From an uncultured delta proteobacterium (GTDB taxonomy: Bacteria; Desulfobacterota; Binatia; UBA9968), in NCBI GenBank assembly GCA_963727625.1, contig CAVSHR010000012.1, positions 544,001 through 608,000 on the forward strand: 64,000 nt of DNA, written 5' to 3'. Position numbers and translations under genes: made by a program. Under the pieces are notes generated by a model. That model was not told where the DNA came from. It saw only the letters and a program-made list of their open reading frames with translations, and did no database searches. Shown one piece after another: positions 764 through 64,000 of this stretch. Position 1 is the stretch's first letter. The number at the start of each line of letters is the position of its first letter.

Positions 764-801
764 AACTTGGCGTCTTTGCGCCTTTGCGAGAGAATATTCT
801 T
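764..801. repeat. Right arm of the inverted repeat abutting the GxxExxY start codon
   Basis: aacttggcgtctttgcgcctttgcgagagaatattctt; same length and same agaatattctt tail as 13158..13195. Confidence 0.9.
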
Positions 802-3800
802 ATCCGATCGGCAGAGTGAATGTGAACGTGCTGCCTTTGCCGACTTCGCTTTCCACCCAGATCTTGCCGCCGTGCAGTTCGACGAACCGTTTAGTCAATG
901 CCAAGCCCAGCCCTGTGCCTTCGCGCTTTTGCGCGTAATTCGATCCGACTTGCCGAAATTCTTCGAAGATCGCTTCCTGGTCTTCCTTGGCGATGCCTAT
1001 TCCGGTATCCGTCACCGAAATAATCGCCGCGCTGTCCCCCACTCTCGCCTCGACTTTGACATCTCCTCCCTCCGGCGTGAACTTTACCGCGTTGGTCAAA
1101 AGGTTGACGAGGATTTGTTTGATCTTGCGCTCGTCGCCAGTGAAATCGCCGAGCCGATCGTCGATCACGCGATCGAGTTTGATCCCATGCCGGCTGGCCC
1201 GCTCACGGATGAGCAAGAGCGCGTTCTCGATCGTATCTGGCAGGTGAAACGTCGTGATCTCCAACTCCATCCGCCCCGCTTCGACCTTGGAAAGATCGAG
1301 GATGTCGTTGATAAGCGAGAGCAGATGGCGCCCGGAAGTTAGAATATCGTCGGTGTATTCGGCTTGTTTTTCGTTCAACTCGCCAAAGAGTTTTTCCTGC
1401 AAGACCTCGGAAAAACCGATGATGGCGTTGAGCGGCGTGCGCAGTTCGTGCGACATGTTGGCGAGAAATTCCGACTTGTGCTGGCTGGCGGCTGCGAGTT
1501 GCTTGCCCTTCTCTTCGATCTCGCGGAACAGCCGCGCGTTGTGGATCGCCAAGGCCGACTGCGTCGCGAAGGTTTGCATCAGGTTCACCACCTCTGGATC
1601 GAACTCTCCGACCTGGCGGCGCCACACCGTCAACCCGCCCATAATTTGCTGCTCGCGCAGGATCGGCACCGTCAAAAGCGAGCGGTATCCGAGGCGGTTC
1701 AGCAACGGTCTCAACCTCGAAGTCGAGCGCTCTTGCTGATCAAAAGTATCGGGGATCTGCACCGGCGCGCGAGTGATCGCCGCTTGCCCCGTGGCGCCCT
1801 CGCCGGCCCTTATCCGAGCTGCTCTAAGCGCCTCGACCGCTTCGCTTTCCATATTGTGGCTCGCCCGCAAATTGAACTCTTGCGCCGCTTCATCATATTC
1901 GTAAATAACCCCGCAATCGGTGCCCGACAGTTCGACCGCCCGCGCGACGATGGTTTCCAGCACCGTTTCAAGATCGAGCGTCGAACTCACCGCTTGGCCG
2001 ACCTCGCTCAGCGCTTTCATCTCCTCGACGGATTCGACCAACTCGCGCGTGCGTTCTTGCAATTCCTTGAACAGCCGCACATTTTCGATAGCGATCACAG
2101 CCTGGTCGGCGAAGGTTTTCAGAAGAGCGATCTGTTTTTCGCTGAATGGCTGAACCTCTCGGCGGTAGATCGTGACCGCTCCGATCAGCATGCTCTCTCG
2201 GAGCATGGGCACATGTAGGGTTGTACGCGCACCTCCAAGCTCTACCGCTGCAACCGTGCCGGGTTGACGCTCCTGATACGCTCTCTCGATTGATATGTCA
2301 GGGATATGAATCGGGCTTCGCTGATGTATGAGTTGTCCAAGCCCCGAACTCGGGCCGGGCCTAATTGGACCCTGCCTCAAGAATTCGTTATAGGCCGGAG
2401 TTGCCCCAACAAGGCCCACAGGTTTGAATTCCTCAGCTTCATATAGGAATAGGAGACCCAAATCCGCATTGCACAGCCGTGTGGCATTGATGAGGATCGT
2501 TTGAAAGACCGGCTCAAGGTTGGTGGGTGAACTACTGATCACGCGCAGGATCTCGCTGGTCGCTGTCTGCTGCTCCAGCGCCTCGGTGATTTGGCGATTG
2601 CGTTCTTCTAATTCTTTGAACAGCCGCACGTTTTCGATGGCGATCACGGCCTGTGATGCGAAGGTCTTGAGAAGTGCGATCTGTTTCTCGGTAAACGGCC
2701 GCACCTCCATCCGGCGAGTTCCAATCACGCCGATTGCGACACTCTCGCGGAGCAACGGGGTGGCAAGCAGGGTTCGATAACCCAACCGGGTTCCCCGGCT
2801 TTCCGGATAATCCGCCGCGACCTCTTGGAAGTCGCGAATGTGAATCGTTTCGCAATCGACAATCGCTCGCCCCTGGTGCGAGTTGCGATTGAGCGGCGTC
2901 TCCGTCCCAAGCGGGCTGCTCGGAGCCGATCCATGGTTGGCGACCTTCCGCAGGCGATCGCCTTCAACCCGCATAAAAATCGCCGCATCCGTCGCCTCAC
3001 AAACCCGCGCCGCGTTCTCGGCCACAGTGTCCAACACCGGCTGAATATCAGTCGGCGAGCTGGCAATGACGCCCAAGATTTCACTGGTCGCCGTCTGCTG
3101 CTCAAGCGACTCCTTCAACTCTTGGAACAACCGCACGTTCTCGATGGCGATAACCGCTTGGTCGGCGAAAGTCTTTAGAAGACTGATTTGCTTGTCAGTG
3201 AATGGATTGACCTCCCCGCGGCGGATGTGAATCACCCCGATTGGTACGCCTTCCCGCAGCAGTGGCGTGGCAAGCGCGGTACCCGCCCCAATTAGGCCGC
3301 GGATACTTGGGAATTCAGTCACGGCTGCAGCGACGTCCTGCACATGAACGGTCTGCCGCTCGATCACCGCTCGCCCGGTGATTGAGCCGTGGTCTACCAG
3401 GCGCTCTGAACCAATTGGCCGTGCCGGCAGTGAACCGCAGTTGGCGACAAGCCTGAGAGAGCTTCCGTCTAGACGCCAGACCAGCGCGTCTTCTGCTCCA
3501 CAAACTCGCAGCGCGTTTTTAGCCACAGTGTCGAGCACCGGCTGGATGTTTGTCGGTGAATTGGCAATGACACCCAAGATTTCGCTCATCGCCGTCTGCT
3601 GTTCCAAAGACTCTTTGAGTTCTTGAAACAGCCGCACGTTCTCGATCGCGATCACAGCTTGATCGGCGAAAGTTTCGAGCAGCTTGATTTGCGCCGGGGT
3701 AAACGGGCGCACCTCGGTGCGCCGTGAGATCAGGAGTCCAATTAGGTCCCCATGTAGGCGAAGAGGAACAGCCAAAAACACGCGCTTCGGCCCCGGAACT

Positions 3801-6800
3801 GCCAATGGGATATCGTTTTGCGTGCGAATATCTGGGATATGAAGCGTGCCATGCTCCCGGACCCAGCGAGCCGGTGGTGAATCAATAGTGATCTCGATAC
3901 CGGGTACGGGTACGGAGCCATAATGAGCCCGGGGGACCAAAGCGTCGCCCTCGCGTAACCGCAGCACCGTATCATCGATCCCACACACGCGCGCCGCGCT
4001 CTCGACGATAGCATCAAGCACCGGCTGCACGTCCGTCGGCGAGCGGCTGATGATGCCGAGCACCTCGGATGTCGCCGTCTGGTGCTCCAGCGCTTCCCTA
4101 AGATCTGCGTTACGCTCCTGAATTTCTTTGAACAGCCGGACGTTTTCAATGGCAATTACAGCCTGGGCCGCAAAGGTTTCGAGCAGTTTAATTTGTCGAT
4201 CAGAAAATGGACGAACCTCGGTTCGCCTGATGTTAATCAAGCCTATAGGTGTACCCTCTCTGAGCATCGGCGTGCTTAAGAATGTCCGTGCTCCCGAGGA
4301 CCCTGCCATATCAGGAAATTCACTCTTCACGGCTTCGACGATATCGTTCACTAGGATCGTTTTTCCGGTAAGAATTGCTCGGCCTGCAGGGTGTCCTAAG
4401 GTCGTGCGCACAAACTCGGGCGCTGGTGCAGGTCCGAAGGATGCCACCCGTCGATGGCCGTCTCCCTCGACCAGACGAATCTGCGCGTCCGTTGCCTCAC
4501 AAAGTCGGGCGGCATTCTCTGCGACGACATCCAACACCGGCTGAATATCAGTCGGCGAGCTGGCGATAACGCCTAAAATCTCGCTCGTCGCAGTCTGCTG
4601 CTCCAACGATTCCTTTAGCTCTTGGAACAGCCGCACGTTTTCGATCGCGATGACCGCCTGGTCAGCGAAGGTTTCAAGAAGTTTGATCTGCGCTGGGGTG
4701 AAGGGACGCACCTCAATGCGCCGTGCAACCAGGACTCCAATGAGTTCCCCATGTAGGCGAAGGGGAACGGACAAAAACACGCGTTTCGGCCCCGGAACTA
4801 AAAATGGGATATCGCTTTTCGTGCGAATATCAGGGATGTGAAGCGTGCCATGCTCCCGGACCCATCGGGCCGGTGGGGAATCAATAGTGATCTCGATACC
4901 GGGTACGGGTACGGAACCATAATGGGCCCGGGAGATCAAAGCGTTCCCCTCGCGTAACCGCAGCATCGTATCATCTATCCCACAAACCCGCGCGGCGCTC
5001 TCGACGATGGCGTCGAGCACCGGCTGCACGTCCGTCGGCGAACGGCTGATGATGCCGAGCACTTCAGATGTCGCGGTCTGATGCTCCAGGGCTTCGCGAA
5101 GTTCGGCGTTACGATCCCCAAGCTCACGGAACAAGCGCACGTTCTCGATGGCGATGACCGCTTGATCGGCGAAGGTCTTTAGAAGAGCTATCTGCTTCTC
5201 GGTGAAAGGCCGGACCTCCGTGCGGCGAATACCGATCGCGCCAATCGCCACACCTTCGCGCAGCAGCGGTGTGCCGAGCATGGTGTGAATACCTCGCTGC
5301 TTTGCGCGATCTTGTTCCTCTGGATATTCGCCGGGAAGCGCGACAATGTCGACAACATGAATCGTCTGGCCGTCGGCAACCGCTCGTCCGTTCAACGAGT
5401 CGCGCGAGAGAGGCGTTTCAAATCCAATCGGACTCCCCGGAACCGACCCGTAGGTGGCGACCTTTCGAAGGCGAGAACTGTCCACGATCATGAAGATATT
5501 GGCGTCATTCGCTCCACAAATTTGCGCCGCATTTCTAGCGACGGTGTCCAGGACCGGCTGAATATCCGTCGGCGAACTGGCGATGACGCCTAAAATCTCG
5601 CTCGTCGCTGTCTGCTGCTCCAACGACTCCTTGAGCTCGTTGAACAACCGTACGTTCTCGATGGCGATCACCGCTTGATCAGCGAAGGTTTTGAGGAGAT
5701 CTATCTGTTTCTCGGTGAATGGATTGACCACCGTACGACGCATAAAGATCACACCAATTGCCATCCCTTCGCGCTGCAGCGGCGCGGCAAGCACCGTTCG
5801 AATGCCGCCTCGTTCGGTGCTGGCTTGAGACTCGGGGAACTCGGTTGCGTTCAGAGCCATCAAATCGTCAATGTGAACGACCCGGCGATCAATCACGGCA
5901 CGCCCGACTACTGAACGACGGTCGATTGGCCGGGGTGAAACGTCAGGCTCGAATGGCCCGTAATGCGCACGCATGGCTAAGACGTCGCCTTCAATGAGTC
6001 GAATAACCGCATCATCCGCACCGCATACTCGCGCCGCGCTGGCTGCTACTTCGTCCAAGACCGGCTGAATATCCGTCGGCGAACTGGTGATGACGCGTAG
6101 AATCTCGCCCGTCGCGGTCTGTTGCTCTAAGGCCTCGGTCAAATCGCGGTTGCGTTCCTGCAATTCTTTGAACAGCCGCACGTTCTCGATGGCGATGACA
6201 GCCTGGTCGGCGAAGGTTTTCAGCAAGGCAATCTGCTTGTCGGAAAAGGGGCGGACCTCCAAGCGTCGGATCAAAATCGCGCCGATCGGCGCGCCCTCGC
6301 GCAGCAGCGGCGTCGCCAGGGTCGTGCGGTGACCCGTCTGTTGCTGGTAACCCTTGATTTCCGGATATTCGCCGTCAACTTCCGCGGCCAGATCGTGGAC
6401 GTGAATGGTTTGACGGTCGATCATCGCCCGAGCCGCGGGAGATTGGCGGTTCATAGGTATATGGCCCGCCGGTATTAGCGGTCCGTAGGATGCCGCCCGG
6501 TGCGCGAGATCGTTCTCAAGGCGAAAAATCTGCGCATCGAATGACTCGCACAGCCGCGCCGCGCTTTCCGCAACGGCGTCGAGCACCGGCTGCACATCGG
6601 TGGGTGAGCGGCTGATGATGCCGAGCACCTCGGCCGTCGCTGTCTGATGCTCCAGCGCCTCGCGCAACTCCGCGTTACGGTCACCGAGTTCTTTGAACAA
6701 GCGCACGTTTTCTATGGCGATAACGGCTTGATCGGCGAAGATCTTGACGAGCGCGATTTGCTTCTCCGAAAATGGACGCACTTCCTTGCGTCGGACAATG

Positions 6801-7804
6801 ATCACCCCGATCGGATCGCCTGCGCGCAATAAAGGCACGCCAAGCACACTTCGAATGCCTATGGTCACCGGTCCCAGGGAAAAATCCACTTCGGGCGCTT
6901 GCACGTCAGGAACATGGATAGTCTGGCGGTCGAGCACGACGCGGCCGGAAAGGTTGCGCCGATCCGCGATCGATTCCTCGCCGATACGCGCCGTCGGAAT
7001 CAGACCGGTCGAGGCCGCGCGTCTGATGATATTCCCGGTAACCCGGTGAATAGTCGCTTCGTCGGCATCACACAATCGCCTGGCATTTTCGACGACAGCA
7101 TCCAGCACCGGCTGAATATCCGTCGGCGAACTGGCGATGACGCTTAAAATCTCGCTCGTCGCCGTCTGTTGCTCCAATGATTCCTTCAGCTCGTTGAACA
7201 GCCGCACGTTCTCGATGGCGATGACCGCTTCGTCGGCAAAACTCTCGAGCAGTTTTATTTGTTTGTCTGTGAAAGGGCGGACTTCCGTGCGCCGGATGTT
7301 AATCACACCGAGAGGCACACCGTCGCACATAAGCGGCGTGGCAAGCGCGGTTCTAATGCCGGTAGCATTTTGGACAGTCCGGTATTCTGGAAACTCCGTT
7401 TCAATTTCTTCCGCGATGTCATGTATGTGAACCGTTTCCCGATCGATGACAGCTCGGCCCACCGGAGTCCCGCGAGTAATGCTCCGCATTCCAATGGCTG
7501 TCGTCGGCATTGACCCATATACCGCCATACGTTGCTGAACATCACCCTCAACGCGAAAAATCAGAGCATCGGCAGCATCACACAACCGAGCAGCATTTTC
7601 CGCAATCGTATCCATCACGGACTGAAGGTCGGTTGGCGTGCGTGCGATCACGCGCAGGATCTCACTCATTGCCGCGCGCTGCTCCTCACCGTCGCGAATT
7701 TCTTGCGCTTGCGCGGCGATGGTCTTCTTCAGCTTCGAGATCGAATTCGCCGGGGACGCCGCGCGCGGTTTTGATTTGGTGGTCTTTGAGATCTTCTTAG
7801 CCAT
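800..7804 (-). CDS. Cytoplasmic sensor histidine kinase with 12 tandem GAF domains, HisKA and HATPase
   Basis: 11 [11 protein letters not shown] plus one [13 protein letters not shown] end; H-box [15 protein letters not shown]-box [21 protein letters not shown]; start taken at MAKKISK. Confidence 0.95.
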
Positions 7805-7841
7805 TCGGACACATAAGACTAAACCAGCTATATACAATGTA

Positions 7842-9719: not shown

Positions 9720-11798
<2,079 letters not shown>

Positions 11799-11986
11799 AG
11801 AAAAAGACCGGGATGAGAAAAAGCCGCGGGCGCACGAAAGCAAGGAAGAGGTGCAATTGTGGCGTTATGAGAGGCGCGCTCGGGGGTTGAGTTTCTTTTA
11901 CGCCAGTCGGTTGCCGGGCGTCAAGGAATGGTTTCGGAGGTTGTGAGGCGTCAAAGGTTAGGGGTTAGGCAAGCCGGAAAACATCA

Positions 11987-28742: not shown

Positions 28743-29732
28743 ATGGAACCGCGAGGAATCGTTTTCACGCCCCAACGCGAGCAGGCGGTCAAGCAGCATC
28801 CTTTCACCGATAAAAAGCGCGCCGCCGAGACCAAGGCCAAGCGCCATCCTCAGACCCGCCGCTTTATGTTCATGCGCGCCGATCATAGCGAACGGGATTT
28901 ACACGACGGTCCGGTGAACCCCGAGCGCATGGACACTGAGAACTGGGAGGGTGCCACCCATTATATTAAGCAAACCGCGCTGCAGATGGGAGCCGACCTC
29001 GTTGGCGTTGCGCCCGTGGATCAATTTGATTTTGTCCGCGGCAGTCAACCTCCGGCCGGCCATACGCGCGCCGTCGCCTTCGCGATCCACATGGACTTCA
29101 ATGAGATGAAGCGGCTCGGGCCGCTGGCGCAGATGGAGGTTCATCGAGTCTATTATCAGTTGTCGGACGTCTCGGTCCGGCTGGCGCAATTCATCCGCTC
29201 CTTCGGCTATCACGCCGTGGGTTATTCCAACGAGGAAACCGCGCTGTTTATTCCACTGGCGTGGAAGGCGGGACTGGGCGAACTCGGCCGCCACGGTTCG
29301 CTGATCACCAAGAAATACGGCCCGAGCGTTCGGCTCGGCGTGGTGACGACCGAGATGCCGCTGATCGCGGAAAGCGCTCCGGCCAACTACGGCTTTGACG
29401 ATCTGTGCCTGCGCTGCAACGCCTGCACGAATTTCTGCCCCGGCGACGCCATCGTGCCACGCAAGCAAGAGGTTTTCGGCACGGTTCGCTGGCACGTCGA
29501 TACGCCGGCGTGCCGGCCCTTCTTCGAAGATTACGAGGGCTGCAAGGTTTGTCTCACCGTCTGCCCCGTCAATGCCCAGACGGAATCCGGCCCGCTTTAC
29601 AAACCATTGATGAAAGGCCTCATGCGCCGTAAGACCAGTGTTAGGGAATTGATCGATGAGTGGCGCGCCGAGGGCGTTAAGGAAGCAGAGGCATTCGGCG
29701 AAGGCTGGCGACAGGACAACGACGGCGACTAA
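28743..29732 (+). CDS. Reductive dehalogenase/QueG-superfamily 2x[4Fe-4S] protein
   Basis: GADLVGVA, AGLGELGRHGSLITKKYGPSVRL, CxxCxxCxxxCP and Cx9CxxCxxxCP. Confidence 0.82.
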   Translation: MEPRGIVFTPQREQAVKQHPFTDKKRAAETKAKRHPQTRRFMFMRADHSERDLHDGPVNPERMDTENWEGATHYIKQTALQMGADLVGVAPVDQFDFVRGSQPPAGHTRAVAFAIHMDFNEMKRLGPLAQMEVHRVYYQLSDVSVRLAQFIRSFGYHAVGYSNEETALFIPLAWKAGLGELGRHGSLITKKYGPSVRLGVVTTEMPLIAESAPANYGFDDLCLRCNACTNFCPGDAIVPRKQEVFGTVRWHVDTPACRPFFEDYEGCKVCLTVCPVNAQTESGPLYKPLMKGLMRRKTSVRELIDEWRAEGVKEAEAFGEGWRQDNDGD

Positions 29733-41513: not shown

Positions 41514-41747
41514 TCACTTGCGTTCGAGAACGTGAATATAGAGATCCGCGGCGCCTTCTTTTTCTGTGCGCTGCTCTTTGAGGATGGCGGTCTTGCTGGT
41601 CTGGGCCCAACCTTTGAAATCCGGCATGGAACCTGGATCGGTGGAGGTTACTTCGAGGAGTTCGCCGGGCTGCATTTGGTCGACTTCCTTTTTCGCCTTC
41701 ACGATCGGGATGGGGCACTTCGCGCCTCTGACGTCCAGTTTTTTCAT
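41514..41747 (-). CDS. tusA: TusA/SirA sulfurtransferase
   Basis: CPxP motif, AGGAGG RBS, last gene of the sulfur operon. Confidence 0.92.
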   Translation of the reverse strand: MKKLDVRGAKCPIPIVKAKKEVDQMQPGELLEVTSTDPGSMPDFKGWAQTSKTAILKEQRTEKEGAADLYIHVLERK

Positions 41748-41761
41748 ATGATGTTTACCTC

Positions 41762-42919
41762 CTAAGCTTCTGCGTAGCCCGCACTGGCGGCGCATTGGTT
41801 CTTGCCCAACTCCCACTCGACCGCGCGCTCGGGTTCAGTATTGCTCTTGCCCAGATTCACGTCGATGATCTCGGCATATTCCGGCGGCGGCGTGCGGACC
41901 GCCTGTTTCATCGCTTCGGTGAACGCCGCGGGGTCCGAGACTTTGAGCTCGGGCAAATTGCGGCGCAGGTCGCCGAGGGTCGCCGACACGACGCCATCGG
42001 AACCGATCTCGGAGATATCGGTATAGTGGGCCGGCAGGACGGTGGTCGATTCGTCGAGCCGGGCGATGCGCTCGTTCAATGTTCGGAAGAGTTCGCGCGA
42101 CCATTCGACCACGTGTCCACCCAGGTCCGGCCGTCCGACGGATTTTTTGAAGAGCGTATCGCCGCTCAACAGGTAACGATCGGCAACGAGGTAACACACC
42201 GAGCCGGGCGTATGGCCAGGCGATGCGAGTATGCGAATCGAAGTTTTGCCAAACCGAATTTTGTCACCGTCTTTCAGAGAACTGGTTTTTTGCATGAGAT
42301 CGAAGCCGGCGCCGGCGCTGACAAAATAGTCCGCGCCCAGCTTGGCGGCAAGTGCTGGTCCGCCGCTGATGTGGTCGGCATGAACATGGGTGTCGAGCAC
42401 GTGGGCGAGCCGTGCACCCGACCGAGCGAGAAACGACTCGTAGGCTTCCGCGGCGCGCGATGGATCGACGACGACCGCTTCGCCGCCCGAGACGATGGCG
42501 TAGGACAGGCAGCCTTTGCCGCGCCGATTGAACTGCCAGATCGCGAAAGCTTCCTGCTCCGATTGCCGCACCGGCACTTTGACCGGTGCGAGATATTCCC
42601 CGTAAGCGATCATGCCGCCGACCAGATTGCGCGTCGGCACGCCCGCGCCGCGCAGGATCTCCGCGACCATTTCGGACGAGCCGCCTTTGGCACAGACGGC
42701 GATGACCTCGCCCTGATGCTGCGGCAGGCGCGCCAGCGCAGACTGTTCGTCTTCAATGAAGTCGAAGTAGGGAATGTGCGCGACTTCGAAATGACGCCGT
42801 CCCTCGATTTTCCAGCTCTCGTACTCGTCGTCGTTCCTGACGTCGAGCACCATCAGCGGCTCGCCGGCGTCCACTTTCGCCAGCAGCTCGCCTACTTCGA
42901 CCTCGTGCTCCGTTGCCAT
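41762..42919 (-). CDS. Rhodanese + MBL-fold protein (YrkH/persulfide dioxygenase-like)
   Basis: LDVR, VCAKGGSS, THVHADHISG, PGHTPGS, SGDTLF, LPAH. Confidence 0.9.
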   Translation of the reverse strand: MATEHEVEVGELLAKVDAGEPLMVLDVRNDDEYESWKIEGRRHFEVAHIPYFDFIEDEQSALARLPQHQGEVIAVCAKGGSSEMVAEILRGAGVPTRNLVGGMIAYGEYLAPVKVPVRQSEQEAFAIWQFNRRGKGCLSYAIVSGGEAVVVDPSRAAEAYESFLARSGARLAHVLDTHVHADHISGGPALAAKLGADYFVSAGAGFDLMQKTSSLKDGDKIRFGKTSIRILASPGHTPGSVCYLVADRYLLSGDTLFKKSVGRPDLGGHVVEWSRELFRTLNERIARLDESTTVLPAHYTDISEIGSDGVVSATLGDLRRNLPELKVSDPAAFTEAMKQAVRTPPPEYAEIIDVNLGKSNTEPERAVEWELGKNQCAASAGYAEA

Positions 42920-57011: not shown

Positions 57012-58475
57012 ATGACCGAAGTTCGTTTTGTCGACACCACACTGCGCGACGGCCAACAGAGTCTCTGGGCTTACAACATGAGAACCGGCATGATGCTCCC
57101 CGTCGCCGAACTGATGGACCAGGCCGGCTTTGAAGCGATCGAGCTCGGCGGCCCGGTGGAGCTCCCGAAGTGCATCAAAGAGCTGCGTGAAGATCCCTGG
57201 GAGCGCTACCGGCTGGTCATTCCTAAATTCAAAAAGACCCCGCTACGGCTCATTCACGGCACGCGCAGCGGCTTTGCGATTTTTCCCGACGCCCTGCATC
57301 AGCTCTACGACACCTGCATGGCGAACGCCGGGGTGACGGAGGTGCGGATTTCGGACTCGTGGAATGATCCTAGCGATTGGGCGTGGCGCGTCCAACAAGC
57401 GAAAAACGCCGGCCTGAAACCGATTATCAATCTGATCTACACCGTCTCGCCGCGTCATACCGATTCATATTTTGCGCAAAAGATTCGCGACGCGAACGCC
57501 CTCGATGTCTACCGCATCATTCTTAAAGACCCCGGCGGCATCTTGACGCCCGAACGAACGAAGACGCTTGCGCCGGCAGTTCTCAAAGCCGCGGGCAACA
57601 CCACCGTCGAGTTGCATACCCACTGCACGACCGGACTCGGGACGCTCTGCTGCCTGGAGGCGATCAAGGCTGGAATAACGAATATCAACACCGCAATTCC
57701 GCCGTTGGCCGACGGCTCATCGAATCCGTCGCTATTCAACGTCGCCATGAACGCGCGCGCGCTGGGCTTCAAGACATTGATCGACGAAGCGCCGCTGCGC
57801 CGGGTCGCGAGTCATTTTACCGACTGCGCCAAGCAGGACGGTTTGCCGATCGGCAGAACTCCGGAGTACGACTACGCCCAATATGTGCATCAAATTCCCG
57901 GCGGCATGATTTCGAATCTGCGCTATCAACTGCGCCGCGTCGGCATGGAACACAAGATGGATCAGACTCTCGAAGAAGCCGCGCAAGTGAGGGCGGACTT
58001 CGGCTACCCGATTATGGTGACGCCACTGTCCCAGTTCGTCGGCAGCCAGGCGGCGATCAACGTAATCGTCGGCGAGCGCTATAAGCAAGTCACCGATCAG
58101 ACCATTGAATACGCCATGGGTATCTGGGGCAAGGAAGGCGCCGTGCTCATGGACCCCAAAGTAAAAGAAAAGATTCTCAACCGCCGGCGCGCCAAGGAAA
58201 TCGCCGAGCGGCCCCATCCGACCGATTCGCTGCAAGAGCTGCGCCGCAAATACGGCGGCGCTGGAGTTAGCGACGAAGACGTGTTGCTGCGCTTTTTTTC
58301 CAGCAAGGAAGACGTCGAACGCATGCGCGCGGCCGGCCCGCCGCGCGCTTACACGACCAACGGCAATCCGCTGCTCAATCTGGTCGAGGAGCTCAGCAAA
58401 CAAAATGAACGCAGCAGCGTATATATTCGGCGGCCGAATTTCTCTCTGCGATTGGAAAGACGCCGCACCGTTTGA
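57012..58475 (+). CDS. Pyruvate carboxylase B / oxaloacetate decarboxylase alpha-like carboxyltransferase without a biotinyl domain
   Basis: DTTLRDGQQSL, EDPWER, LKDPGG, LHTHCTTG, HQIPGGMISN, GYPIMVTPLSQ; no AMKM. Confidence 0.88.
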   Translation: MTEVRFVDTTLRDGQQSLWAYNMRTGMMLPVAELMDQAGFEAIELGGPVELPKCIKELREDPWERYRLVIPKFKKTPLRLIHGTRSGFAIFPDALHQLYDTCMANAGVTEVRISDSWNDPSDWAWRVQQAKNAGLKPIINLIYTVSPRHTDSYFAQKIRDANALDVYRIILKDPGGILTPERTKTLAPAVLKAAGNTTVELHTHCTTGLGTLCCLEAIKAGITNINTAIPPLADGSSNPSLFNVAMNARALGFKTLIDEAPLRRVASHFTDCAKQDGLPIGRTPEYDYAQYVHQIPGGMISNLRYQLRRVGMEHKMDQTLEEAAQVRADFGYPIMVTPLSQFVGSQAAINVIVGERYKQVTDQTIEYAMGIWGKEGAVLMDPKVKEKILNRRRAKEIAERPHPTDSLQELRRKYGGAGVSDEDVLLRFFSSKEDVERMRAAGPPRAYTTNGNPLLNLVEELSKQNERSSVYIRRPNFSLRLERRRTV

Positions 58476-58504
58476 ATGATCGCGGCGTTTTTTGGGAGGA
58501 CATC

Positions 58505-59032
58505 ATGGCACGCGTGCCCTTGATCGAAGAAGCCGACCACCCGGAGCTTGCCGATTCTATCGCCAAAATTAAGGGCGCACGCGGCGGCCGGCTCATCAAT
58601 ATCTATCGTTTGATGCTGCACAGCCCGGCCCTGGCCAACGCCTGGTTCGATTTGAACCAGGCTGTGCGCTACGGCACCGAGATCGACGGCCAGAGCCGCG
58701 AGCTGGCGGTGATCCGCGTGGCGATCTTAAACAACGTCGAATATGTCCAGCGCGCCCACGGCCCCGCCTACGCGCTCAAAGAAGGCTTGACGCCCGAGCA
58801 AGTGACGGCGCTGGCAAACTGGCGCGACTCGAAGCTTTTCAGCGACCAGCAGCGCGCCCTGCTCGCTTACACCGACGCGATGACTCGGACCATCGAAGTG
58901 TCCGGTGACGTTTTCGACGAACTGCGCAAGCATTTCAGCGAACGCCAAACCGTCGAGCTCACCATGCTCATCGGTGCCTACAACATGCTGACCAGATTTT
59001 TGCAGGCCCTCGAGGTCGATCCGGAACCCTAG
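58505..59032 (+). CDS. Carboxymuconolactone decarboxylase/AhpD-like protein
   Basis: HSPALA, RELAVIRVA, EY..RAH, VELTMLIGAYN; GGAGG RBS. Confidence 0.88.
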   Translation: MARVPLIEEADHPELADSIAKIKGARGGRLINIYRLMLHSPALANAWFDLNQAVRYGTEIDGQSRELAVIRVAILNNVEYVQRAHGPAYALKEGLTPEQVTALANWRDSKLFSDQQRALLAYTDAMTRTIEVSGDVFDELRKHFSERQTVELTMLIGAYNMLTRFLQALEVDPEP

Positions 59033-60246: not shown

Positions 60247-60669
60247 TTGCGCCGGCGCTCTAGTCCGCGCGTTCCAGACGCCATCTGGCTTGGCGCCGTT
60301 GTCTCTGTCCGCAAACAGGATCGCTACGTGGCGAAGCGGGTCACTTGGGAGATGCCCACTGGAGGGGTTCATTCCGGGGAAAGCGTCGAGGATGCCGCGC
60401 AGCGAGAATTAGGAGAAGAGGTTGGTTACCAAGCAGGTCGCCTCAAATGGGTCTCAACCTATCACGCCAGCAAAAGCGTTATGGATGAAACCGCGCACCT
60501 CTTTTGGAGAAGACCTGGCGGAGCTTAGGCTCGATTCTGACGAACCCGAGTTCATCGAGGCGCAACCAGTTCCTTCAAAAAAGTTGTTCAAATGGTTCTT
60601 GCGAGCGAGATTCTGGACAGCATGACAGTTATAGCCATTCCTCATGCTGCCCGCATGAAAGGAATTTAG
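60247..60669 (+). pseudogene. NUDIX hydrolase, frameshifted and 5'-truncated
   Basis: Nudix box GGVHSGESVEDAAQRELGEEVG; continuation spread over three frames. Confidence 0.75.
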
Positions 60670-60678
60670 CGCCGTAAC

Positions 60679-61209
60679 TCAATGACGGTCGAATGGAGCC
60701 TGCGGCTCGTAGTCGTAGCGCACCAGCCACCAGTGTCCGCTGCGGCGCGCGAACATCCAGAAGTCGCGGTAGTAATGGTCGCCTCCCCACCCATGAAACT
60801 TCTGATTGATCTCCACGACCGCCGAATTATTGACAATGTAGATCCGATGGATCCGATCCTCAAAACGGATCTGTCCAATTTTACGATCGCGAAAGGCACC
60901 AAGGGCCTCGGCGCGGATGCCGGCATAATCGATCATGACTTTCGGCTTGTCCCAAGCCCGCTGTAGCGCGTCGGCAGCATAGGCCGACATGACCACGTTG
61001 ATATCCCTCCGTTCCCAGCCCTGCCCAACAGTCATGATCAGGCGCACGATTTCTGCTTCGTCTTGGTTGCGCGAGCTGTATTGGGCGATCGGCACTCCGG
61101 CCCCATGATCAGCCCAGCTCGTTTTTGCAGCAAAGACCAGAATGAAAAACAATAAGTTGGTGGCCACCACCATTTTAAACATCTCAAACGCGAAGAGTTT
61201 CTTCATCAT
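60679..61209 (-). CDS. Secreted NTF2/SnoaL-like protein
   Basis: Signal peptide; WERRDINVVMSAYAADA, GHWWLV. Confidence 0.7.
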   Translation of the reverse strand: MMKKLFAFEMFKMVVATNLLFFILVFAAKTSWADHGAGVPIAQYSSRNQDEAEIVRLIMTVGQGWERRDINVVMSAYAADALQRAWDKPKVMIDYAGIRAEALGAFRDRKIGQIRFEDRIHRIYIVNNSAVVEINQKFHGWGGDHYYRDFWMFARRSGHWWLVRYDYEPQAPFDRH

Positions 61210-61943
61210 TTGTCCCTTTCTCTTATATCTTCTATCCCTTTGGTGCTGCAGGGCTGGATCGATGAAACCGGCGGCAACTCATGAGGTGGCAAGAAGATCG
61301 CGAGGTAACTTTCGGCTGGATCAAGCGGCATGAATTCGATCTGCCGGTAACCCACGGCCTCGAGCTCACAACGCAAAAGGGCGGGCGGGGTTCCATGATG
61401 CTGGGTCGGCCGATCGACGTCGACGATGGCAACCCGCCCAGCGGTCACAAGGGCGGGTTTCAGCCGGTAGAAGAATTCATAAGGATTTTCGATCTCGTGG
61501 TAGACGTGCGATAGGAGGGCGACATCAACGGAACCGGGCATCAACTTGGGATCATTGGGCTGTCCGAGCACCAATTTGACGCCAACCATCTCTTCCTGCT
61601 CAAGCCGCGCGGCGAGCCGTTTGAGGTAATCCGGTCTGACATCCTGCGCATATATAGTGGCTGAAGGACCCAGACGCCGCGCGAGCCGAACCGTATAATA
61701 ACCTGCGCCCGCACCGATGTCGGCGATCCTTGGGCCCGGTGCGAGGCCGAGATGGTCCATGACCCGCTCGGCCTCTCCGGTTTTGTCTCGTGTCTTCTCA
61801 TCCGAATATGCCGGCGCAACAATCGCCGCCACCGGCCGATCGGGTCTCGGAAAGACCAGCCGAACCTGCAGCAGCGCATCGCCGGCCCATAACAGACCGA
61901 TAGCCCCCAACGTCGGGATGAGATAGCGATGGACGCACAGCAT
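61206..61943 (-). CDS. Class I SAM-dependent methyltransferase
   Basis: IADIGAGAGYY, YAQDV, HVYHE. Confidence 0.88.
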   Translation of the reverse strand: MLCVHRYLIPTLGAIGLLWAGDALLQVRLVFPRPDRPVAAIVAPAYSDEKTRDKTGEAERVMDHLGLAPGPRIADIGAGAGYYTVRLARRLGPSATIYAQDVRPDYLKRLAARLEQEEMVGVKLVLGQPNDPKLMPGSVDVALLSHVYHEIENPYEFFYRLKPALVTAGRVAIVDVDRPTQHHGTPPALLRCELEAVGYRQIEFMPLDPAESYLAIFLPPHELPPVSSIQPCSTKGIEDIRERDK

Positions 61944-62314: not shown

Positions 62315-63037
62315 ATGAAAGGCGCCCACCACTTATCAGAATCTCTCCTTCCCGACGCTCCAGTGCTACCTCGTTTTTTGTGTCCTAGTTCCATGGCCCA
62401 AACTGATCGGCGCATTTCTGGATTTTTTTGTGACCTTGCTTTATAGCGCCATCAATAGCGAATTGGGAAGACCGCCCACCCTAGGGGAGAGCCCTTTGAA
62501 TGTCTCCGGTCTCCATGCAGGCATCTTTCTAGTATCGCTGATTTTTGTGATTGACTGGGAGCTTGAGCGGTTCAATCTCAAAGGCGCCGGAGCGCCGTTA
62601 TTTATTCTACTCACAGGCAGCCTAGGCGCTCTGAGCGCGATGTCATACAGAAGGATTGCGTATCTCTGGCGAGTGCCCGAAGGAAACATGATCGGAATGC
62701 AGTGCCTGGCCATGGCTGCTGTCTTGATTTTTCCGATGCTATGGCTGCCCCGACGCTTAATTGGCGACCGCCGCAGCGGCTGGCTCTGGATCATCGGTCT
62801 TTCCTTCTCAGCCACGGCGATGTTTGCCTACACCATCATCCATGGAAATTGATCTATTCCGCCGATTTCGATCTGATCCAGCTCTACAATATCGTGGAAG
62901 ATCCCCAGGAGAGAAGAAATCTTTGGCAAGAAAATCGCCAACTTGCGGCTGAGATGGAAAGAGAGCTGATGGGCTATCTAAAAAAAGCGGCGGGAAAATC
63001 CTACCGGCCACTGCTTTCGGACGCTCCTGCCCGATAG
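62315..63037 (+). pseudogene. Remnant of a membrane-anchored sulfatase-like gene
   Basis: TM-rich segment joined out of frame to WKLIY...QLYNIVEDPQERRNL (sulfatase-type C-terminus); ATG at 62315 is one base out of frame. Confidence 0.55.
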
Positions 63038-63239
63038 CACGACCGGTCTTCGCATCGCTTTCAGGCCTTTTGCGGGGGGTCGAAGGCATTATGTTCCGGA
63101 TGTTCCGGATAGATCAAAGTAGAGACGAAAGCGCTTGAGCAAGGAACTTTAGCGGGGGGTGGAACGTTATTAGAAAAAATCGGTATCGAGAGAACGGCTA
63201 ACCTCTTACGGATAAGCCGTAATCGCAGAAAAGTATCAG

Positions 63240-64000
63240 ATGCAAGCGACTGCTAAAGCGATCGGCGACCATTCTGCAGCAGAAATCAGGCAATTGGTTC
63301 GCGACAAGTATTCTGAAGTCGCGCTCAAGCCGGGCTCAAAATACAAGTTCAGGGTCGGTCGCGAGTATGCGATCGAGCTCGGCTATCCCCCTCAAAAGGT
63401 TCAAGCGCTTCCGGAGAAATTGGCTGAGGCCTTTACCGGCGTCTCTTCGTTCATGGCCCGTTTCGAGGATTTCGCTCCAGGAGATGTCGTCCTCGAGCTT
63501 GGATCCGGTGGAGGATTCGACAGCGCATTACTCGCCAAACGATTCGGCGCTGCGACAAAGGTCATTGGAGTCGATTTTTCTCTCGACATGATTCAAAGGG
63601 CAGCGCGATCTCTCGGCGCGCTGGAGCTTTGCCAGGTTAATTATACCCAGGCTGTGGCGGAGGAGCTTCCCGTCCGTGATAATTCAGTGGACTGGGTTGT
63701 CAGCAACGGGATCTTCAATCTCTCCCCGGAGAAGGAGAGAATCCTGTCCGAGATTCATCGGGTCCTAAAACCCAAGGGTCACGTGCTCTGTTCCGAGATC
63801 GTTCTCTATCAGGAGCCCACTCCGGAGGAGCGTCTCAATGAAGACGACTGGTTCAAGTGAATTGCCGGCGCAATGTCGGAAAAGTCTTTTCTGACCAAAT
63901 TCATCGAGGCTGGGTTCACCCGCATAGAGATCCTGGAGAATTCCGAGAATAAACGAACGCCAAACCGCAACGCCTACGTGGTTACTCTAGCCGCGCAGAA
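63240..64000 (+). CDS. ArsM-like SAM methyltransferase, probable selenoprotein (TGA 63858..63860 = Sec); runs off the window
   Basis: VLELGSGGGFD, SNGIFNLSPEK, RVLKPKG; frame stays open after TGA: DWFK-U-IAGA...AGFTRIEI; SECIS-like hairpin follows. Confidence 0.85.
63858..63895 (+). promoter_or_regulatory. Putative bacterial SECIS element
   Basis: gtcggaaaa-gtc-ttttctgac stem (one G-U pair), apical G 24 nt after UGA. Confidence 0.7.

Follow-up and report, generated by a model that had tools for sequence, protein, structure and literature searches.

The locus and its reading frame

The DNA analyzed here is a stretch of 64,000 nucleotides (nt) from an uncultured member of the Binatia (contig CAVSHR010000012.1), hereafter called the window, at the 3' end of which lies a gene for a methyltransferase dependent on S-adenosylmethionine (SAM) and related to the arsenite methyltransferase ArsM. 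The open reading frame (ORF) predicted there (63240..63860, forward strand, 206 amino acids) agrees in its start with the N-termini of homologous proteins and is closed by a TGA at 63858-63860. When this codon is read as selenocysteine (Sec, U), no further stop is encountered up to 63998, the last whole codon of the window, and the product comprises 253 residues in total, continuing past the TGA as ...DDWFK-U-IAGAMSEKSFLTKFIEAGFTRIEIL... and ending as ...NEDDWFK-U-IAGAMSEKSFLTKFIEAGFTRIEILENSENKRTPNRNAYVVTLAAQ. These coordinates are the same as those of a preliminary description of the region made from the sequence alone, in which the TGA at 63858 had been singled out as a putative Sec codon followed by a frame open to the window end. 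The features of the locus are as follows:

63240..63857, forward strand: codons 1-206 of the predicted selenoprotein gene, encoding an ArsM-like class I SAM methyltransferase domain with the SAM motif LELGSGGG
63858..63860, forward strand: in-frame UGA, predicted Sec207, in the motif U-I-A-G ('UxxG' type), opposite Cys224 of CmArsM
63861..64000, forward strand: codons 208-253, clipped by the window end, which complete the methyltransferase fold and open the linker towards a radical SAM domain
63875..63895, forward strand: hairpin within the coding sequence resembling a Sec insertion sequence (SECIS), with a 9-base-pair (bp) stem, an apical loop GUC and 23 nt from the UGA to the loop

The open run of 46 codons past the TGA is by itself not rare, and TGA is the commonest ordinary stop among the 35 family-supported ORFs of the window (TGA 15, TAA 13, TAG 7). 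What lifts the case for recoding above chance is comparison: ArsM homology across the TGA, conservation of the TGA and of the hairpin, and synonymous sites that are frozen in the hairpin stem. On these grounds, UGA-207 is almost certainly recoded as Sec, aided by the coding-region hairpin that starts 15 nt downstream, and the region 63240..64000 very probably represents the 5' 46% of one gene, the product of which would be a protein of ~550 residues with two selenocysteines. The preliminary description had therefore seen the N-terminal 253 of these ~550 residues only, the radical SAM fusion and the second Sec lying outside the window. A promoter and terminator scan of 62800..64000 revealed, on the forward strand, none beyond shuffle expectation.

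Conservation of the first UGA

A protein search covering 5.8 billion clusters returned 420 matches, of which 120 were listed (51-100% identity). Among the matches listed, 118 of 120 end one residue short of the TGA position, in DWF(K/T/R) or DDRFK, and in an alignment of 21 listed relatives all 21 end exactly at the TGA position. To this we added a scan of genomes, with one genome per species (GTDB), which yielded 17 loci. The 12 close ones (L001-L012, 53-84% identity) come from metagenome-assembled genomes (MAGs) of Binatia, Acidiferrales, Tectomicrobia and 'Deltaproteobacteria', and in 12/12 the TGA stands at the same column and the frame continues behind it. The TGA is thus not unique to the source assembly, and neither Cys nor Trp replaces it in close homologues. 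The more distant locus L013, from Desulfovibrio (33% identity), bears Cys at this column, and the remaining four (L014-L017) align over residues 58-180 only; no homologue seen carries Trp or Gly there. Both halves of the fusion gene are under strong purifying selection.

A hairpin within the coding sequence

The first hairpin, closed by the pair G63875-C63895, contains nine pairs, including one G.U, and exposes the loop GUC at 63884-86. It is identical to the 9-bp stem reported earlier at 63875..63895, whose loop region had been given as AAGUCU, that is, the GUC loop plus the closing A-U pairs. The bacterial SECIS (bSECIS) model requires 3-9 nt in the loop, 4-16 bp in the stem and a G in the first two loop positions, together with 16-37 nt from the UGA to the loop and a minimum free energy of <= -7.5 kcal/mol (PMC13188914, figure legend). 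The hairpin agrees with this model in its 3-nt loop, its 9-bp stem, G as the first loop nucleotide and its 23-nt spacing, and is borderline in energy, so that the earlier impression of a SECIS-like element with an apical G was sound in loop, stem, G and spacing. The energy amounts to -8.0 kcal/mol in most relatives and to -11.7 kcal/mol for the 46-nt fold.

The stem is kept in 13/13 sequences, and pairing is found in 108/108 cells over 12 distinct sequences, compared with 32-57% in controls in which the stem was slid along the alignment. Three pairs vary on one side via G.U, and one is changed on both sides, in L006, where AAG is replaced by AGG (Lys to Arg) and, synonymously, UCU by UCC, turning A-U into G-C. 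Because this is the only double change, and 35/500 shuffles match it, covariation is weak. At the third position, the four stem codons with an invariant residue (Ser, Glu, Phe, Leu) have an entropy of 0.29 bit, compared with 1.07 bit for 37 other nearby codons for invariant residues, 35 of which use more than one codon. The sole synonymous changes in the stem, UCA/UCG and GAA/GAG, preserve pairing.

An ArsM-like domain with predicted Sec at the position of the conserved cysteine

The window fragment is matched by the Pfam models Methyltransf_31 (1.4e-23), Methyltransf_25 and Methyltransf_11, and by ArsM-type NCBIfam models at 169-190 bits, each under its own cut-off. On the arsenite methyltransferase model NF008823 (cut-off 263 bits), the fragment scores 169.1 and two full-length relatives 151.2 and 171. 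A PDB search with the read-through protein found algal arsenite methyltransferases, the alignments starting at residues 51-57 and ending at residues 231-235, and the TGA lies opposite a Cys of the solved ArsM proteins, namely the CLAGA Cys of CrArsM (GE-C-LAGA) and Cys224 of CmArsM (GE-C-LGGA). The placement of the UGA at a conserved ArsM cysteine, put forward in the preliminary description, is borne out by this alignment. The motif W-x-x-C-I-(A/S)-G-A, which had been given there for arsenite methyltransferases, fits the present subfamily (DWFK-U-IAGA here and DWFR-C-IGGA in the record P0271), but not ArsM proper, which reads YGE-C-LGGA.

Pairing of Cys with Sec at this column is seen in CrArsM, CmArsM, the Desulfovibrio locus (...VGCVGGA) and P0271 (DWFRCIGGA). 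The last (309 amino acids, 39% identity in a single matched stretch) represents the N-domain subfamily in a stand-alone form with Cys and likewise lacks the other ArsM cysteines. Counted along the alignment with CmArsM, U207 corresponds to Cys224, G157 to Cys174 and V68 to Cys72, and the N-terminal Cys region (CmArsM Cys44, CC) is missing. The earlier remark that the GCG and SNCV cysteines are absent therefore holds, 'FTGVSS' standing for GCG and 'SNGIF' for the SNC motif. Methylation of As(III) needs all four cysteines of CmArsM (Cys44, Cys72, Cys174 and Cys224), of which Cys174 and Cys224 make up the metalloid site, with dimethylarsenite, DMAs(III), retained longest by Cys224 (PMC6138428, in the part consulted). 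It follows that Sec207 would occupy the position of the final metalloid ligand. With three of the four required cysteines missing, and with an NF008823 score under the cut-off in agreement, the fusion protein, judged by its predicted residues, cannot be a canonical arsenite methyltransferase.

Other ArsM-like arrangements were met among the matches. P0268 and P0281 are tandem ArsM proteins, and many proteins of 700-1070 amino acids match the query in two stretches, with the ArsM-type one at residues ~480-760. P0264 (608 amino acids) combines an N-terminal region weakly matching the MduS model, a Cys-type ArsM domain and a second ArsM-like domain that stops abruptly at ...DAWAT, equivalent to the site of the Sec codon; this record may represent a further case of Sec read-through that went unrecognised.

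Fusion with a radical SAM domain

Ten loci extend to the gene end (L007 and L008, broken by contig ends, were left out); there the frame runs ~340 codons further, giving proteins of 543-552 amino acids. Pfam recognises Methyltransf_31 and Radical_SAM in the fusion, the latter at residues 292-433 of the L001 protein, and PF04055 matches the C-terminal half at 1.7e-23. The continuation of the window gene itself exists as a database record of 337 amino acids (P0146), the first 42 residues of which are identical to the product of 63873..63998; it bears the radical SAM domain and ends ...ACQVCLKGST. P0146 and all 10 complete loci have CNLACTHC as their CxxxCxxC motif.

Structure models were built with AlphaFold2 (AF2) on the L001 relative, 84% identical to the window fragment. 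The full-length model (alignment of 92 rows) reached a predicted local distance difference test score (pLDDT) of 82.3, with the last six residues under 50, and its top Foldseek match in the PDB was CmArsM with As(III) bound (6cx6_B, 5.6e-14). The model of the C domain alone (pLDDT 82.2, predicted template modelling score (pTM) 0.84) found as best PDB matches BlsE, SkfB, anSME, SuiB, MoaA and EpeE, all of them twitch/SPASM-type; against SkfB, the query-based TM-score (TMq) was 0.71, with a root-mean-square deviation of 3.6 over 288 columns, and these fold alignments cover the whole domain. It is thus strongly supported that translation past UGA-207 runs through the ArsM-like fold into a twitch/SPASM-type radical SAM domain. 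Near its C-terminus, this domain has four invariant cysteines, arranged as C-x13-C with G-x4-C and then CxxC, which we tentatively read as the set that binds a twitch-type auxiliary cluster; the predicted Sec comes five residues further on. In the SPASM motif, which we take to be CX2CX5C, the third Cys stands at the same spacing past the CxxC as does the Sec; on spacing alone, Sec might take the place of this third Cys.

Searching 1.84 billion representatives with phmmer listed the family solely as split halves, of 333, 364 and 208 amino acids (58%, 55% and 54% identity). In annotated MAGs, the halves are named 'methyltransferase domain-containing protein' and 'radical SAM protein'. No fused Cys form was found there, nor in the 5.8 billion clusters with the full-length query, a search in which the 8,000 candidates sharing most words with the query were scored and which gave 86 matches of 302-963 amino acids, none covering more than 62% of it.

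The same radical SAM module also occurs in P0241, P0244 and P0245 (364-367 amino acids), where it follows an N-terminal TusA-like sulfur-carrier domain (PF01206); P0241 likewise ends ...GST. This arrangement hints that the radical SAM module may act on something delivered by a Cys or Sec carrier.

A second UGA and a hairpin in the 3' untranslated region

All 10 complete loci end ...C-x2-C-L-K-G-(S/A)-(T/A)-TGA-GCN-TA(A/G). The Ala codon behind this second TGA shows synonymous variation only (GCG 5, GCT 2, GCA 2, GCC 1), and the true stop after it is TAG in six loci, TAA in four and never TGA. Correspondingly, among the matches listed, 120/120 relatives of the C domain end ...VC(L/R/K)(K/R)G(S/A/N/G)(T/S/A). 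In 10/10 loci, the 3' untranslated region (UTR) has a GC-rich hairpin whose loop is spaced 17-20 nt from the UGA and begins with G; its five core pairs are formed, and no U-run comes after it. Four of the five core pairs differ on both sides between L001-L009 and L010-L012, double-sided changes that represent one evolutionary split, not many events; since MAFFT alignments misregister the hairpin of L010-L012, the pairs were counted in a loop-centred register chosen by us and are thus fitted to the structure. Taken singly, the sequences give z-scores between +0.20 and -3.47.

The coding sequence is the normal place of SECIS elements in bacteria, and the curated families 'UXX-star' and 'UXPK-star' carry Sec within four residues of the C-terminus (PMC13188914, in the sections consulted). 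Comparison of the relatives gives strong support to a second UGA that is decoded as Sec and served by the 3' UTR hairpin, the true stop being UAA or UAG. For the window's own gene, the second UGA is inferred from the relatives and from P0146.

Genomic neighbourhood

Downstream of the fusion gene, 9/10 loci carry a radical SAM/SPASM gene of ~345 codons. In NCBIfam, its product comes nearest to 'tungsten cofactor oxidoreductase radical SAM maturase' and to 'putative metalloenzyme maturase', with scores of 117-130 bits where the cut-offs are 380-400. A DUF2064 gene (Pfam) comes next in five loci, and the two DUF2064 proteins scanned reach 176 and 185 bits on TIGR04282 'arsenosugar biosynthesis glycosyltransferase' (cut-off 134). 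Upstream, a Nudix hydrolase is present in L006, L010 and L012, and a small methyltransferase in L002, L003, L005, L006, L007 and the window, where it is the following feature:

61206..61943, reverse strand: small class I methyltransferase, 65% identical in tblastn to L006:2243-2962

The conserved operon is biosynthesis-like and not an ars operon, and its content suggests organo-arsenic or organo-selenium chemistry.

Two neighbours of the selenoprotein gene in the window show signs of decay. Directly upstream of the latter, on the forward strand, 62343..63031 holds three pieces detected by tblastn that correspond to residues 13-61, 260-375 and 825-887 of an intact sulfatase of 888 amino acids in the equivalent place of L001 (Pfam finds a weak SGSH_C tail), and by its sequence is a decayed sulfatase with large internal losses. 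Within a NudE-like Nudix gene at 60247..60690 (forward strand), 60301..60666 matches residues 66-188 of the L006 Nudix protein; as its codon 94 is an in-frame TAA/TAG stop, followed four codons later by a TGA, this gene is probably a pseudogene.

Farther away, an AhpD/CMD-family protein (58472..59032, forward strand) scores 64 bits on 'YciW-related (seleno)protein' (cut-off 310) and matches TIGR01926; its ORF looks complete, and no in-frame TGA was picked up in it. At 41514..42919 (reverse strand), 20 kb from the fusion, a TusA/YedF-like small protein adjoins a gene for a rhodanese plus metallo-beta-lactamase-fold, persulfide dioxygenase-like protein, a pair devoted to sulfur or selenium trafficking. 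Encoded elsewhere in the window are a sensor histidine kinase of 2345 amino acids (800..7837, reverse strand), a second kinase of 707 amino acids (9720..11843), and a reductive-dehalogenase/QueG-like iron-sulfur protein (28743..29732, forward strand; TIGR02486, 105 bits, cut-off 160). An in-frame TGA lies 60 nt upstream of this last gene, and Pfam detected no domain across it.

Alternative explanations

Several results weigh against the two-selenocysteine reading or limit what may be said of function. Single-sequence statistics of the first hairpin are weak (z = -1.89 for 46 nt, with 8/200 shuffles equal, and z = -0.98 for 71 nt), and the bare 21-nt hairpin, at -7.3 kcal/mol, is slightly short of the -7.5 kcal/mol of the model. 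Rfam gave no match over the whole window at the gathering score; relaxed searches of 63780..64000 and of L001 3560..4760 returned chance-level snoRNA and aspS matches only, and neither hairpin was matched. In 4/10 loci, the 46-nt fold of the second hairpin does not surpass shuffles (z +0.20 to -0.86), and the second UGA with its hairpin was observed in relatives, the window gene being represented at that end by a protein record that stops at ...CLKGST. Neither selA, selB, selD nor tRNA-Sec was detected in the 64-kb window (0 tRNAs, 0 Rfam matches, 55 ORFs). A survey of the window for read-through, comprising 80 TGA candidates, of which 8 chosen for their overlap with real genes were scanned with Pfam, revealed no second selenoprotein gene, as no domain spans the TGA in these eight. 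As regards the C-terminal half, the last 84 residues give no match to the SPASM Pfam model (PF13186, E <= 0.1); when the C domain was compared by hhalign with the neighbouring radical SAM/SPASM protein, the core alone aligned (163 columns), an alignment piece with the GX4C of anSME being not significant; and the full-length AF2 model has a pTM of 0.52, each domain being confident and their mutual placement uncertain. Finally, identification of the C domain as ArsS was rejected, since TIGR04167 is outside the 25 best of 54 families; on the related P0241, this model scores 51.4 bits against a cut-off of 300.

Among the competing explanations, the one that survives best, although improbable, is that of a plain arsenite methyltransferase serving arsenic detoxification, in which Sec simply replaces one Cys. 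ArsM-type models are indeed the best NCBIfam matches, As(III)-bound CmArsM comes first among the fold matches, and the UxxG motif equals that listed for the Sec-containing ArsM. Such an enzyme would nevertheless have to function with three of its four required cysteines (PMC6138428, in the part consulted) missing, the NF008823 scores of 169 and 151 bits stay far from 263, and a radical SAM fusion in a biosynthesis-like operon is not what detoxification from an ars operon would present.

Somewhat less probable still is that the first UGA alone encodes Sec, the protein ending ...CLKGST and the 3' hairpin stabilising the mRNA or regulating the next gene. The usual location of bacterial SECIS elements in coding sequence, the other roles open to a hairpin between operon genes, and the four regions that fold like shuffles would suit this explanation. 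It leaves unexplained why a single Ala codon, varying synonymously, is followed by TAA or TAG in 10/10 loci, and why the hairpin spacing of 17-20 nt, the G-first loop and the pairing are kept through compensatory changes; moreover, the 'UXX-star' and 'UXPK-star' families are precedents for Sec near the C-terminus.

It is very improbable that the first TGA is an ordinary stop separating two genes, one for a 206-residue methyltransferase and one for a separate radical SAM protein of ~337 residues, even though gene callers and the NCBI annotations of the MAGs divide the gene in this way, TGA is common as a stop in the window, and an in-frame ATG at 63873 could begin the second product. The methyltransferase fold would then be cut exactly at the catalytic Cys position, with loss of conserved ArsM-homologous sequence; in 13/13 sequences, the 12 nt that separate TGA from ATG specify, in frame, the conserved IAGA; 9/13 have CTG or TTG (Leu) instead of ATG as the supposed start; and a hairpin whose structure is preserved and whose wobble positions are frozen lies past the TGA. 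An assembly error, a pseudogene or a genome-wide reassignment of TGA to an ordinary amino acid (Trp or Gly) can practically be dismissed, for despite the decayed Nudix and sulfatase neighbours the identical TGA recurs in 12 independent assemblies, both gene halves are under strong purifying selection, 15/35 family-supported ORFs stop at TGA where their families end, and no Trp or Gly occupies the column in the homologues seen.

Proposed mechanism and significance

The function of the fusion protein is inferred from its domain content, its missing cysteines and its operon. In the mechanism that we propose, Sec207 would take the place of Cys224, the single ArsM cysteine still bound to the metalloid when the catalytic cycle closes, and the flexible C-terminal Sec tail could supply a second chalcogen ligand or a redox partner. 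By means of this tail, As, Se or a comparable metalloid or chalcogen species, once bound, may move between the site of SN2 methyl transfer and that of the radical SAM reaction, so that a single polypeptide would do the work of ArsM and ArsS, or of ArsM and ArsL, in organoarsenical biosynthesis. The TusA-like fusion of the same Sec-tailed module may point to a deliverable chalcogen or metalloid as the substrate. Taken to its full extent, the mechanism would make the proteins an apparently Sec-obligate, uncurated enzyme family that holds a metalloid or chalcogen between two selenols and forms carbon-element bonds by both polar and radical SAM-dependent chemistry in a new pathway, a proposal that we regard as speculative and, as a whole, rather unlikely. 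One selenol would lie in the ArsM-like site and the other on the tail, beside the auxiliary Fe-S cluster.

Were this proposal true, soil and groundwater bacteria akin to the Binatia would possess an organo-arsenic or organo-selenium pathway of a new type, and the candidate chemistry would sit in poorly known phyla. An ArsM-type site with a single selenol, joined to a radical SAM domain and accompanied by a TIGR04282 gene in the operon, offers a testable candidate for new carbon-arsenic or carbon-selenium bond formation. A fused two-Sec gene model would also correct at least several hundred database clusters that are now split into a truncated 'methyltransferase' and a 'radical SAM protein'. 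The family itself would add a fourth C-terminal partner to those known for the ArsM-like Sec domain, and would provide a clean natural case of a bacterial SECIS acting from the 3' UTR, with the UGA one codon before the true stop.

Comparison with known systems

The remark in the preliminary description that Sec-containing relatives had been reported proved correct, since UxxG ArsM-like Sec proteins are found in both the literature and NCBIfam. A Sec-containing arsenite methyltransferase (NF008823, UxxG, WP_011987699.1) is tabulated in PMC13188914 and PMC9312934, and the consulted parts of PMC13188914, a 2026 review, list the ArsM-type fusion families NF041537 (ArsM/AhpD), NF041536 (ArsM/DUF2284) and NF047649 (methyltransferase/UXPK-star), which are credited to Haft & Tolstoy 2025, as well as the radical SAM selenoproteins TIGR04167 and TrsS, and MduS. 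In those parts of the review, 'radical SAM' occurs three times, never for a methyltransferase fusion, although the architecture described here may figure in Haft & Tolstoy 2025. Neither methyltransferase nor radical SAM is mentioned in the BSepDB supplement (one file) and the deep-Sep paper, and our literature search found nothing joining Binatia to selenocysteine, or selenocysteine to arsenosugar and radical SAM. On the two full-length relatives scanned, all models of NCBIfam (release 20) stay below their cut-offs.

Like the Sec-containing ArsM of NF008823, the fusion protein described here is predicted to have Sec at the Cys224-equivalent position within the same UxxG motif; it differs in lacking the other three ArsM cysteines, in scoring under the cut-off and in being fused to a radical SAM domain. 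From the pairs of ArsM with ArsS (arsenosugars) and ArsM with ArsL (arsinothricin), it is known that one arsenic atom can be the target of both a methyltransferase and a radical SAM enzyme (bioRxiv 10.1101/2024.02.01.577332, in the part consulted). These pairs share with the fusion an ArsM-type domain and a CxxxCxxC radical SAM enzyme, and a TIGR04282 gene lies in the same operon as the fusion; here, in contrast, both activities would reside in one polypeptide, the radical SAM domain of which is twitch/SPASM-type and not ArsS.

A similar pairing in the opposite domain order is found in the radical SAM/SPASM-ArsM fusions P0266 (718 amino acids), P0273 and P0290, which are 33-35% (P0266 and P0290) and 36% (P0273) identical to the query. 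P0266 is a Cys form, in which the ArsM cysteine motifs are present and the ArsM domain, at 273 bits, passes the NF008823 cut-off of 263. P0273 and P0290, classed from NCBIfam scans, remain under it (210 and 226 bits), and their C-terminal region resembles the 'metal-binding double selenoprotein MbdU'. With the twitch/SPASM enzymes SkfB (6efn), BlsE (7vob), anSME (4k36) and MoaA, the C domain shares the fold (TMq 0.61-0.71), the CxxxCxxC motif and, probably, the C-terminal pattern C-x13-(Gx4)C ... CxxC; it departs from these enzymes in having the predicted Sec five residues past the CxxC and in ending one residue later.

The closest likeness is to NF041537, NF041536 and NF047649, which also combine an N-terminal ArsM-like domain bearing Sec in UxxG with a second Sec in a C-terminal module; in UXPK-star, Sec sits a few residues before the stop, so that the SECIS must lie past it. 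Full-length relatives score 155-203 bits on these three models, through the N-terminal domain only (cut-offs 510, 575 and 460, respectively), and the fusion described here differs from them in its C-terminal radical SAM twitch-type domain of ~300 amino acids ending U-A-stop. The kind is thus already known, and its two-Sec ArsM-like/radical SAM architecture looks uncurated.

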